64,000 nucleotides of DNA from Candidatus Melainabacteria bacterium (GTDB lineage: Bacteria > Cyanobacteriota > Vampirovibrionia > 2-02-FULL-35-15): NCBI GenBank assembly GCA_023250195.1, contig JAHFBF010000001.1, forward strand, positions 273,907-337,906. Direction: 5' to 3'. Shown one piece after another: positions 32,919-35,021 of the stretch; the stretch's first letter is position 1; every line of letters begins with the position of its first letter. The notes under the pieces were generated by a model that saw nothing but the letters and a program-made list of their open reading frames with translations, did not search any database and was not told the DNA's origin. The translations under genes and the position numbers were made by a program.

Positions 32919-35021
32919 ATGACTATGTCAACTAAGGATATAAAACAAAAAATCGAAGACTTAAGAAAAAAACTCCACCACTGGAACTACACATATTATG
33001 TTCTAGATAATCCTGAAGTTGACGACGCTGTATATGATGCTGCAATGCGTCAGTTAATTGAATTTGAAAAAGATCATCCTGAATTAATTACCCCGGACAG
33101 CCCAAGCCATCGAGTTGGCACAGAACCTGTTTCAGATTTTAAAAAAGTTACACACAAAACACCTCTTTACAGCCTTGACAATGCACTTAATTTTCAGGAG
33201 CTGGAAGACTGGCAGGAAAAAATATTTCGCATACTTGGCGATTCATCAAAGGTTGACTACATTTGCGAAATGAAAATCGATGGACTTGCAATGGCTCTAA
33301 CTTATGAAGATGGTATTTTAACCCTAGGTGCAACCCGTGGAGACGGCGATACCGGTGAAAATATTACAAACAATATCAAAACAATAAAATCAATCCCGTT
33401 AATTTTAAATAAATCTGTTTCCGGACTTCTTGAAGTACGAGGCGAAGTCTTTATGCCGATTGAAAGCTTTGAAACATTAAATAAAGAACAAAAAGAAAAA
33501 GGAGAAAAAGTCTTTGCAAATCCACGAAATGCAGGAAGCGGTTCAGTCAGACAATATGATTCAAAAGTCACTGCTGGTCGGGATTTGGATATGTTTACTT
33601 ATGCCGGTATTTGGAGTAATTGTATCATTGCGAGGAGCAAAGCGACGAGGCAATCTGCGAACAATTCACATAATGAGATTGCCACGTCGGCTCTTTCAGA
33701 GCCTCCTCGCAATGACGTGCTACCGACAACCCACTGGAATAGTCTACAGCTTTTAAAAGAACTTGGTTTTAAAGTAAATAAAACATCAAAACTTTGCCAC
33801 GGGCTTGAAGAAGTAAAAGATTTTTGTAATCGCTGGTATGAAAAAAAACATGAGCTTTCTTATGCCATTGACGGGGTAGTAGTAAAAGTAAATGATCTTG
33901 CTATTCAACAGGAGCTTGGTTTCACTGCAAAAAGTCCACGCTGGGCAATTGCATATAAGTATCCGCCTGAAGAAGCAGAAACAAAAGTTTTATCTATAAC
34001 ATGTGATCTAGGCAGAACAGGAGCACTTACACCGGTTGCAAATTTGGAGCCTGTACTGCTGGCTGGCAGCATCGTAAAAAGAGCAAGCCTGCATAACCAG
34101 GACATAATAGACAAGCTTGATGTAAGAGAAGAAGACATTGTAATGATCAGAAAAGCCGGTGAAATCATTCCGGAAGTTATTTCTGTTAATAAAGAAAAAA
34201 GAAAATATAAATCTCATCCTTATAAACTGCCTTCAAAATGCCCAGTCTGCAATTCAAAAGTTGAAAGGGAAGAGGAAGAATCTGCTGTACGCTGTCCAAA
34301 CTATAATTGCCCCGCACAAATGCAAAGGCGAATAGAACACTGGTGCTCTCGCGATGCTATGGATATTGACGGTGTTGGAGAATCATTAATCGAACAGCTT
34401 TTAAAGAATAAATTAATTGAAGATCCTGTTGATTTATATTTTTTAAAGCAGGAACAGATTGAAGGACTGGAAAGAATGGCAGAAAAATCTGCACAAAATG
34501 CAATTACATCAATTGAAAATAGTAAAGAAAAGACTCTGGATCGTTTAATTTATGCTTTTGGAATAAGGCATGTTGGAAAAACAGTTGCAGAGCTTTTAAC
34601 AACAAGATTTTCCTCGATAGAAGAATTCTCAAAAACTACACTGGAAGAACTTACGGAAATTGGAGGAATAGGTCCAAAAATTGCTCAATCAATAATTGAT
34701 TTTTTTAAAACCAATGCATCTAAAGAAATAATAAACAAAATTAAAAAAGCAGGTATTATCTCTCATGCAAAACAAATCAAGATAAAAGACAGTAAATTAG
34801 CAGGAAAAACACTGGTTATTACAGGGACGCTGGAAAGTATGACAAGAAGCAAAGCTGAAGAATTAATTAAGAATCTAGGAGGAAGAGCAGCTCCAACTGT
34901 TAGCAAAAACACTGATTATCTGATAGCTGGAGTGGAACCAGGCTCGAAATTAAAAAAAGCTAAAGAATTAGGGGTTAAGATTCTAAACGAGAGAGAATTT
35001 GTAGAGCTGATAGAATATTAG
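32919..35021 (+). CDS. ligA: NAD-dependent DNA ligase
   Basis: KxDG adenylation motif (CEMKIDGLA), Zn-finger CPVCNSK...CPNYNCPAQ, HhH and C-terminal BRCT; carries the in-frame family-A element. Confidence 0.9.
33625..33719. repeat. Family-A RPE-like element, copy A3, inserted in frame inside ligA
   Basis: atcattgcgaggagcaaagcgacgaggcaatctgcgaacaattcacataatgagattgccacgtcggctctttcagagcctcctcgcaatgacgtg. Encodes ...[31 protein letters not shown]... Confidence 0.8.

Follow-up and report, generated by a model that had tools for sequence, protein, structure and literature searches.

Why does the gene of an essential enzyme carry a palindromic repeat within its codons, and how is the repeat accommodated? 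This question is raised by the NAD-dependent DNA ligase gene ligA in the 64,000-nt stretch of DNA analysed here, which we refer to as the window. Our analysis suggests that the extra segment is very probably a copy of a REP-type palindromic element lodged in the coding sequence of a variable loop in the LigA adenylation domain, as tolerated selfish or repeat DNA. The gene and its insert are located as follows.

32919-35021, + strand: ligA, host of the insert (ORF, Pfam, E. coli alignment, invariant columns, AlphaFold).
33621-33719, + strand: family-A palindromic element, 99 nt = 33 codons in frame, LigA residues 235-267 (empty site of the orthologue L006 and filled orthologues, nhmmer, gap in the E. 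coli alignment).

An earlier, sequence-only reading had described an uninterrupted LigA frame of 700 aa. The ORF is indeed intact and encodes the Pfam domains DNA_ligase_aden, OB, Zn finger, HHH_2 and BRCT. The window protein retains all 66 positions that do not vary among 120 LigA sequences, the KxDG lysine K119 among them. The same reading had placed an insert of about 31 codons from position 33625. It was right that the insert is in frame, but size and start had to be revised: measured against the empty-site orthologue L006, the insert extends from TGT to GTG (C235-V267); since its left terminus is degenerate (TGTATC vs family CACGTC), the exact ends may shift by a few bases. In a phmmer comparison with E. 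coli LigA (2OWO), the alignment breaks at query residue 229 (E. coli 226) and restarts at query residue 267 (E. coli 234), so that 37 query residues face 7 in E. coli; the E. coli sequence given in the sequence-only reading (..ELPDTHLGRL..) was correct. The insert lies in the adenylation (NTase) domain between the strand ..DMFTYAGIW and the downstream helix.

The inserted DNA is the palindromic element itself, as had been proposed: its arms are complementary, and nhmmer matches it to the repeat family A at 33622-33719 (E = 2.6e-20).

33625-33637, + strand: left outer inverted repeat TCATTGCGAGGAG with the degenerate tag TGTA vs family CGTC; 13/13 complementary to 33703-33715.
33643-33656, + strand: left inner repeat CGACGAGGCAATCT, GCAAT plus the tail portion of the left REP unit; 13/14 complementary to 33676-33689.
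33676-33689, + strand: right inner repeat AGATTGCCACGTCG, followed by the side hairpin GGCTCTTTCAGAGCC at 33690-33704 (arm pairing, RNA fold).
33703-33715, + strand: right outer inverted repeat CTCCTCGCAATGA, then CGTG (GACG tag on the opposite strand); 13/13 arm pairing, flank comparison.

Each unit follows the plan of a tag CGTC/TGTC, ATTGC, a small variable hairpin, GCAAT and a CCA/CTC tail, and the element is an inverted dimer of two units, as are all full family-A copies. The stem of a unit opens with ATTGC/GCAAT (A-T, T-A start) and has 5 bp of contiguous pairs, followed by an internal loop and a hairpin of 2-5 bp; examples are GGGC-TTTA-GCCC for the copy at 37909 and, within ligA, GC-AAA-GC for the left and GGCTC-TGAAA-GAGCC for the right unit. 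The RNA fold of the ligA insert reaches -50.5 kcal/mol (z = -6.2; 0 of 200 shuffles as stable), and the mean over 126 copies is -48.7 kcal/mol. Left ends of the 126 copies from other phyla read CGTC (86) or TGTC (34) in 120 cases; right ends read GACG in 93 and GACA in 29, and GCAAT is followed by a CCA tail in 58, by CTC in 25 and by CCC in 9. In Melainabacteria, the tail is mostly CTC, CTG or CCC. Four family-A copies of the window begin with CGTC and one with TGTC; the ligA copy has TGTATC on the left and an intact GACG on the right, and the ligA copy of L001 begins with TGTC. The motif CGAAGCAATC within the left inner repeat is kept in family copies from many phyla, and the side hairpin of the ligA copy marks a subfamily that is also present at non-ligA loci.

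Within the window, the terminal 13-mer matches 16 times with at most two mismatches, vs 0.76 expected. By nhmmer, the window contains six full copies and one half copy of family A, and only one of these seven, that in ligA, is internal to a gene. The others are:

19850-19935, + strand: intergenic copy (nhmmer, copy comparison).
24008-24097, + strand: intergenic copy whose same-frame peptide resembles the LigA insert (nhmmer, translation).
37909-38006, + strand: copy between rluA-like and lspA-like genes (nhmmer).
39469-39518, + strand: right half of a copy, intergenic (nhmmer, copy comparison).
41615-41711, + strand: copy, probably intergenic (nhmmer, copy comparison).
42704-42801, + strand: intergenic copy (nhmmer, copy comparison).

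In the frame of the LigA insert, the copy at 24008-24097 reads VIARNAVTKQSLKRKEIATSALRAPPRNDA. lspA (37976-38485, minus strand) takes its final ~10 codons and its stop from the copy at 37909-38006, and at the orthologous rluA/lspA site in L004 the right junction is identical and the interior different. An ORF at 41579-42697 begins at a TTG that precedes the 41615 copy by 36 nt; if this start is real, the copy would lie inside the ORF. The window also holds canonical CGTC-1-like units at 3975-4001 and 47505-47526, and a second in-frame REP, namely a canonical CGTC-1 unit encoding ..DSRFRGND.. in an Exo_endo_phos ORF. GTAG-tagged hairpins in the window form a family separate from family A.

The sequence-only reading had named as its own refutation an extra segment that is a lineage-wide LigA feature with no nucleotide similarity to the other element copies. 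Neither part agrees with the data: the ligA insert is clearly similar to the intergenic window copies, and on alignment most close orthologues are devoid of the segment. The loops of P0005, P0006, P0010, P0012 and P0018 have 8-12 residues, and the DNA of L006 shows the empty site, where TGGGAT directly precedes AAAGCGCCAAAAACC. Across the 120 LigA sequences, both length and sequence of the loop are variable, and 15 of 44 related LigA proteins contain a palindrome or its remnant there; these palindromes belong to three families. On the LigA tree, proteins with and without an insert are interspersed, with P0002 (insert) as the sister of P0007 (no insert) at a bootstrap of 100. A DNA alignment of eight orthologues revealed shared junctions in the window and L001-L005, ..TGTG followed by TCATTGCGAGG on the left and CGCAATGAC followed by RNNTNACC on the right. 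The copies in L003 and L004 have the opposite orientation and a different interior; we rejected an origin as simple flips of the window type since the interiors differ. Nested inserts occur within ligA copies of relatives, L005 has an internal deletion, L007 retains a lone right terminus, and in L008, L009 and L010 GTAG hairpins fill the same loop. Among the related loci, the ligA copies are the only gene-internal ones of family A, and other LigA loops likewise carry insertions.

Such a diversity of states could indicate active, site-specific turnover, with the ligA loop as a landing pad at which a targeted enzyme, or conversion through the shared termini, repeatedly inserts or replaces palindromes and the present copy is young. 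We regard this explanation as possible but doubtful. It would account for identical junctions that nevertheless enclose two orientations and different interiors, for the same pattern at the intergenic rluA/lspA site and for the presence of three unrelated palindrome families in one loop in 15/44 LigA sequences. On the other hand, the window and L001 copies have a derived 6-nt loop indel in common, which suggests descent from one insertion, and the decay products in L005 and L007 represent ordinary erosion. Selection alone can also gather the surviving insertions in few permissive loops, and other LigA loops are hit too.

What does the insert mean for the protein? The copy length is a multiple of three and its frame is free of stops; therefore it would be translated as a 33-residue segment. 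In any given frame, some 40-50% of the family copies contain no stop, and thus an open in-frame copy in ligA is not improbable. All insert variants from 7 species are stop-free and in frame, and the later indels inside the insert are all multiples of 3 (+30 in L001, -6 in L002, +24 in L004, deletions in L005 and L007). Open frames together with at least five independent multiple-of-3 indels are to be expected only of a translated segment. The structural modelling proposed in the sequence-only reading yields an intact ligase with a mean pLDDT of 89.8, in which residues 244-264, inside the insert, are the sole segment below 50. Solved adenylation domains superpose on the model with target-normalised TM-scores of 0.90-0.94 and ~34 extra alignment columns. 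The insert is thus predicted to be a largely disordered excursion that leaves the ligase fold and catalytic residues in place. The idea of a benign surface loop, put forward from the sequence, is consistent with the low pLDDT of 244-264, the domain superposition and the variability of the loop, from which we infer its exposure. We also infer that the insert is translated and harmless. As a query in a protein search, a 42-aa peptide containing the insert returned no candidate.

Two further explanations would spare the ligase this loop or deprive it of function. If the segment were removed before the mature protein is made, as an intron, an intein or by translational bypass, LigA would lack the loop altogether. 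The segment begins with Cys, as inteins do, and in some yeast mitochondria palindromic inserts rich in GC are bypassed. Inteins comprise at least ~130 residues, start with Cys/Ser and end with His-Asn followed by Cys/Ser/Thr. The 33 residues found here are far below this size, and their end, ..PRNDV then L, has no His-Asn plus Cys/Ser/Thr. At gathering thresholds, Rfam detects nothing but two tRNAs in the whole window, and the element matches no curated RNA family. Given the size, the motifs and the frame conservation in 7 species, we rejected removal as very improbable. A decaying pseudogene or an assembly artefact is the least credible explanation of all. It is suggested by repeat DNA inside a gene and by nothing else, and it is opposed by a full-length ORF with all invariant residues, by the exact protein on 2 contigs in two archives (NCBI, ENA) and by independent assemblies of other species with homologous inserts at the same site. 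In addition, ligA is under purifying selection, since the protein is about 80% identical between species while 4-fold sites are 40-58% identical.

The nucleotide conservation of the insert is more difficult to reconcile with a passive passenger. Between species, ligA copies are 94%, 85% and 88% identical, whereas ligA third positions are 56-58% identical and silent ligA sites are saturated. On sequence comparison, a neutral insert under simple vertical inheritance would not fit these values. Exaptation would offer one solution, if the insert had gained a function either as a partner-binding protein loop or as an mRNA/DNA hairpin that tunes ligA expression. Identity within the insert (93/99 nt vs 78% gene-wide, P about 1.5e-5) extends to its synonymous positions, and the hairpin is strong. 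However, most orthologues have no insert, or have deletions or unrelated palindromes in its place, the L002 copy has uncompensated mismatches in the outer stem, and the segment is predicted to be disordered. The ligA copies share 84-92% identity with non-ligA members of the side-hairpin subfamily on other metagenome contigs, and only one of eight subfamily marker matches lies in ligA. Because paralogous intergenic copies are equally conserved, conservation is a property of the family and not of ligA, and we consider exaptation improbable. The same identities, together with those of 85-94% among ligA copies despite saturated silent sites, speak for the turnover of copies described above.

A mobilising enzyme for such turnover was sought at loci with paired copies (L022, L023, L029, L037, L101). 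Judged by reading the translations, the ORFs between the copies encode ordinary-looking proteins, among them glycosyltransferase-like and amidase-like ones; no transposase was recognised and no insertion sequence with family-A ends was found among them. In L003, family copies flank a GIY-YIG gene, but only 2 of ~130 element-bearing loci have one, and it was rejected as mobiliser. The flanks of 15 copies contain no consistent target-site duplication or target consensus. A GTGTT recurring after the right end was discarded as a target motif, as it merely lengthens the terminal inverted repeat (AACACGTC...GACGTGTT). The lack of a conserved target motif or duplication in these flanks and of an enzyme among the examined loci argues against targeted turnover. 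A tolerated repeat is the preferred explanation: an inverted dimer of CGTC-tagged units would have lodged in the variable NTase-domain loop and would act there as selfish or repeat DNA, in the manner of Rickettsia RPEs and of REPs found within other genes. Frequent occupancy of the loop would reflect the small number of insertion-tolerant places in an essential enzyme and may be aided by copy turnover at the filled site, either by re-insertion or by conversion via shared termini.

With its inverted-dimer arrangement, family A agrees with the published description of CGTC-tagged REPs (Di Nocera, De Gregorio & Rocco 2013, BMC Genomics 14:522; PMC3733652), as far as can be judged from its sequence. 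It has the terminal CGTC/TGTC tag, the A-T/T-A stem start and the CCA-like tail, its inverted units can form one long hairpin, and no dedicated transposase was recognised at the examined loci. Copies are likewise mostly intergenic and near 3' gene ends, with occasional in-frame copies encoding 20-30 residues. The four published CGTC families have a contiguous 8-9-bp stem whose first pairs are A-T and T-A and a 4-5-nt loop, with atypical loops noted for Bradyrhizobium CGTC-1 (PMC3733652); the family-A unit differs by its 5-bp stem, internal loop and small variable hairpin. Judged by its listed peptide VIAGLDPAI rather than by its sequence, CGTC-3 seems to be the nearest published type. CGTC repeats have been reported from five phyla, and the superfamily includes Rickettsia RPE-4 and RPE-6 (PMC3733652). 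We detected the exact family-A termini in Melainabacteria relatives, Patescibacteria, Chloroflexota, Planctomycetota, Desulfobacterota and Clostridia, i.e. in many more phyla than in that survey, as well as in the Rickettsiales genomes L030, L068 and L089. REP dimers of 20-30 codons occur in frame within genes, many of them for replication or repair (PMC3733652), so this kind of event is known. The sole DNA ligase in the supplementary list of intragenic repeats is the ATP-dependent ligase of Opitutus terrae with a GTAG REP, not LigA (PMC3733652). A literature search with DNA strings of the element and the encoded peptides returned chance primer matches or nothing.

Palindromic elements of Rickettsia are found in frame in functional, often essential genes, and the loops they encode are translated and judged fold-compatible (Ogata et al. 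2000 Science 290:347, summarised in PMC10969869, PMC3733652). The palindromic repeat in frame in the essential gene ligA resembles them, as does the CGTC-1 unit in the Exo_endo_phos ORF, whose peptide DSRFRGND is identical to that listed for R. conorii CGTC-1 (PMC3733652). For some RPE families, close to half of the R. conorii copies reside in ORFs (PMC10969869, PMC3733652), in contrast to 1/7 family-A copies in the window. Moreover, RPE hosts are obligate intracellular alphaproteobacteria, whereas the host studied here belongs to a free-living groundwater lineage of Melainabacteria. REPINs and RAYT-mobilised GTAG REPs were reportedly described by Bertels & Rainey 2011 and Nunvar et al. 2010. 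Like a REPIN, family A is an inverted REP doublet with a hairpin of about 100 nt, but its tag is CGTC instead of GTAG, and a non-exhaustive look at the window found no RAYT gene flanked by family-A copies. Bacterial MITEs such as Correia/NEMIS, ERIC, RUP and Nezha (review PMC10969869) are similarly short, non-coding and numerous, with terminal inverted repeats and possible in-frame fusion with host ORFs. Family A departs from them in that a consistent target-site duplication is absent and no parent IS with the same ends was found; termini kept across phyla, as in family A, are unusual for a MITE.

What is new in comparison with the Rickettsia precedent is that, among related species, several repeat families have repeatedly entered the same LigA loop. 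In its strongest form, the loop would be a recurrent landing or replacement site for at least three REP-type families, with the CGTC-ATTGCGAG family still mobile across many phyla through a possibly conserved enzyme of the host or the element. We consider this rather unlikely; if true, a mobile CGTC-ATTGCGAG family and a landing site would explain copy identities of 84-94% despite saturated silent sites, both orientations and the swapped interiors. Our findings extend the in-frame insertion of REP/RPE repeats to Melainabacteria and the exact terminal sequences of a CGTC-type dimer to many phyla. One loop of the NAD-dependent ligase is present among related species as empty, filled in two orientations, with a nested insert, internally deleted or reduced to a single terminus, and thus provides a clean natural series for the tolerance of repeat-encoded loops by an essential enzyme. 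The conservation of copies far above the silent sites of the host gene bears on how CGTC-type REPs spread, and the ligA series represents a concrete system in which this can be tested.

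The ligA gene of the window carries an in-frame palindromic insertion in the adenylation domain of LigA. The reading frame is uninterrupted, as the sequence-only reading had held, and every expected domain of the enzyme was found (Ia, adenylation, OB, Zn finger, HhH and BRCT). In a phmmer search of solved structures, the alignment with E. coli LigA (2OWO) fell into two blocks, with a break at query residues 229-267 and E. coli 226-234; 37 residues therefore face 7 in E. coli, the earlier figure being about 8. In L006, the ligA locus of a relative, the site is empty (TGG GAT/AAA GCG CCA AAA ACC CAT TGG, slash at the junction), and the window is longer by exactly 99 bases. 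The earlier proposal of an in-frame insert from 33625 stands, its size of about 31 codons being slightly short.

32919-35021, + strand: ligA, NAD-dependent DNA ligase, 700 aa (ORF and domain search)
33621-33719, + strand: family-A insert in ligA, 99 nt = 33 codons, C235-V267 (comparison with the empty site of L006)

The inserted DNA is the palindromic element itself, as had been proposed: its outer arms (33625-33637 and 33703-33715) are complementary at 13/13 positions and its inner arms (33643-33656 and 33676-33689) at 13/14, and this near-perfect palindrome has a fold energy of -50.5 kcal/mol (z = -6.2 relative to shuffled sequences). For the terminal 13-mer, the window has 16 occurrences where 0.76 would be expected, and a profile built from family-A copies recovered six full copies plus a half copy there:

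19850-19935: full copy
24008-24097: full copy
33622-33719: full copy, inside ligA
37909-38006: full copy
39469-39518: half copy
41615-41711: full copy
42704-42801: full copy

Only the ligA copy lies within a gene, unless a putative TTG start at 41579 is real, in which case copy 41615-41711 would fall within an ORF at 41579-42697. The lspA-like ORF at 37976-38485 (- strand, signal peptidase II) takes its last ~10 codons and stop from the copy at 37909-38006 (overlap 37976-38006); in this 169-residue protein the Pfam domain extends to residue 153.

By its LigA homologues the organism belongs to the Melainabacteria (Vampirovibrionia); the closest named ones come from 'Candidatus Melainabacteria bacterium' MAGs (73-79% identity). 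The extra segment is not a lineage-wide feature of LigA, since most of the 47 closest orthologues have 662-672 aa and a loop of 8-12 residues. Comparison of ligA DNA from 11 of these orthologues, and of LigA proteins, revealed a series of loop states (L, DNA loci; P, orthologue proteins):

Window, L001, L002: family-A element of the same type and orientation
L001: extra 30-nt GC-rich mini-palindrome nested within the family-A element
L003, L004: family A with junctions as in the window, opposite orientation, different interior
L004: additionally a nested 24-nt insert
L005: both family-A termini kept, interior gone
L007: right terminus alone kept (CTCGCAATGAC)
L008, L009, L010: GTAG-tagged hairpin GTAAGGGCAGGTTT..AAACCTGCCCCGAC at the same place
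L009: this hairpin doubled
L008: this hairpin carries the same 30-nt mini-palindrome as the L001 element
P0011, P0014, P0021, P0023: third palindrome GCGATTAATCGC, DNA confirmed for P0011

Of the 44 orthologues parsed, 15 carry a palindrome, or what remains of one, in this loop. The insert states are scattered on a neighbour-joining LigA tree built with insert columns removed: of the sister pair P0002 and P0007 only P0002 has an insert, and P0013 has one whereas its sisters P0024/P0026 have none, with bootstrap 100 for both pairings. The 30-nt mini-palindrome (L001 10187-10216, L008 3263-3292; CCGCCAAAGGCGG(A/G)(C/T)CCGCCTCCGGC(A/G)G), hosted by a family-A copy in one ligA and a GTAG hairpin in the other, seems to be another small mobile family with a preference for hairpin loops. 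Three perfect GTAG-tagged hairpins of the type found in L008, L009 and L010 occur in the window (6188-6215, 51662-51690, 56892-56919; e.g. GTAGTGGCAGGTTTTAAACCTGCCACTAC). Other LigA loops are also occupied: a second in-frame hairpin insert follows ..RVLG in L001 (9684-9764, GAAAGCAGGGTCGCACGACCCTGCTTTC) and L004 (8218-8298, GAAAGCGGGGTCCCGGGACCCCGCTTTC), with compensatory changes preserving the stem, and P0032 has a 54-residue insert after ..LNK. Just upstream of ligA lies a tRNA gene (32738-32811, - strand); at that position L002, L003, L005 and L010 have a phage-type integrase gene and variable cargo, comprising restriction-modification and TIR-domain genes (L005) or Prim-Pol genes (L003, L010), which suggests an integration hot spot adjoining ligA.

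All insert variants are in frame and stop-free in every species compared, and at least five independent later indels within the insert are multiples of 3, which argues that the ribosome reads the segment rather than the segment being excised or bypassed. The window LigA retains 66/66 invariant columns of a 120-sequence alignment, including the KxDG lysine. Between species, protein identity is 76-86% and that of 4-fold sites 38-58%, which places ligA under purifying selection. An AlphaFold2 model from the 120-sequence alignment has a mean pLDDT of 89.8; residues 244-264, within the insert, form the only segment below 50, and confidence is high for the strand and helix on either side. Solved adenylation domains match the model with target-normalised TM-scores of 0.90-0.94 (rmsd 1.9-3.5 Å) and ~34 extra columns in the alignments. 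We infer that the loop would point away from both DNA and nucleotide pocket. The predicted fold, with low confidence confined to the insert, agrees with the earlier interpretation as a benign loop insertion.

The ligA copies of the element are far better conserved than ligA itself, with ordinary immediate flanks. Element identity is 94% between window and L001 (93/99 nt), 85% between window and L002 and 88% between L001 and L002, whereas the coding sequence is 76-78% identical overall and 56-58% at third codon positions. Scanning metagenomes for a marker of the subfamily's right arm gave 8 copies, 1 of them in ligA; the remaining 7 lie at unrelated loci and show 84-92% identity to the ligA copies, so that conservation is a property of the subfamily and not of the ligA site. 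Together with the occurrence of both orientations at one junction in ligA, and with a second orthologous site (rluA/lspA) that has the same junction and a swapped interior, this suggests turnover of copies at occupied sites, by re-insertion or by conversion via shared termini. Against turnover, a derived 6-nt loop indel is common to window and L001, and L005 and L007 show plain erosion; either a single old insertion in ligA or repeated turnover may account for the pattern. Also against turnover, neither a target motif nor a target duplication was found in the flanks of 15 family-A copies, and no mobilising enzyme was recognised among ORFs between paired copies. In L003 (16767-17324), a 98-aa GIY-YIG gene (16989-17285) lies between a full and a right-half copy; it was rejected as a family-A partner, being present at 2 of ~130 loci.

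An element scan (GTCATTGCGAG-N60-90-CTCGCAATGAC, one genome per species) yielded at least 120 loci. The matches listed include Alphaproteobacteria (Bradyrhizobium, Rhodospirillaceae, Rickettsiales including Tisiphia), Gammaproteobacteria (Legionellales, Coxiellaceae), Bacteroidota, Patescibacteria, Chloroflexota, Planctomycetota, Desulfobacterota, Clostridia, Ignavibacteriota, Zixibacteria, Margulisbacteria and the melainabacterial order Caenarcanales. In a Solimonas MAG (L022, L037), several copies per few kb lie within larger repeated units, which are present in both orientations, the flanks of one copy being the reverse complement of another's. Common to all copies are an outer stem and a conserved inner stem (CGAAGCAATC...GATTGCTTCG), together with side hairpins and a central stem extension, both variable. 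The extension is complementary more often than expected by chance, perfectly so in 16/103 copies against 1.4 for shuffled partners (maximum 6 in 1000 shuffles). Each half runs from the CGTC tag through ATTGC, a small hairpin and GCAAT to the tail; among 126 copies in the matches listed, 86 carry the tag CGTC and 34 TGTC, and 58 have a CCA tail and 25 a CTC tail.

CGTC-tagged REPs carry CGTC or, as a variant, TGTC as their tag, their stems open with A-T pairs and their tails are CCA; inverted dimers able to fold into a single hairpin are frequent, and there is no dedicated transposase (Di Nocera, De Gregorio and Rocco 2013, PMC3733652). Our element shares tag, A-T stem opening, CCA tail and inverted dimer, but its unit, a 5-bp stem with internal loop and small hairpin, differs from the four published families. 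It is therefore filed as a CGTC-superfamily dimer, probably of an undescribed family, and not as a member of CGTC-1 to CGTC-4. Canonical CGTC-type REPs also occur in the window. One pair, 3975-4001 (+, TGTCATTCCCGCAAAAGCGGGAATCCA) and 4032-4056 (-, TCATTCCCTGGCTTGACCAGGGAAT), sits between convergent ORFs 2024-3967 and 4071-5876. A CGTC-1-type REP (TGTCATTCCCACGAAAGCGGGAATCCAG, 47505-47526), the second in-frame repeat in the window, lies close to the N-terminus of an Exo_endo_phos protein of 543 aa (46049-47680, - strand) and encodes ..LDSRFRGND.., the peptide listed for R. conorii CGTC-1/RPE inserts (PMC3733652).

In-frame insertion of REP/RPE repeats into replication genes is already described. 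Intragenic REPs are often found in DNA synthesis and repair genes, more than half as dimers or groups encoding 20-30 residues; the intragenic CGTC repeats of R. conorii have been equated with RPE-4 and RPE-6, and recB of two Xanthomonas species carries different REPs at about one site (PMC3733652). What the present findings add is a naturally occurring range of states for a single loop in an essential enzyme, the occupation of that LigA loop by three palindrome families, and the exact termini of this CGTC dimer across many phyla. The conservation pattern is relevant to the question of how repeats of the CGTC type move.
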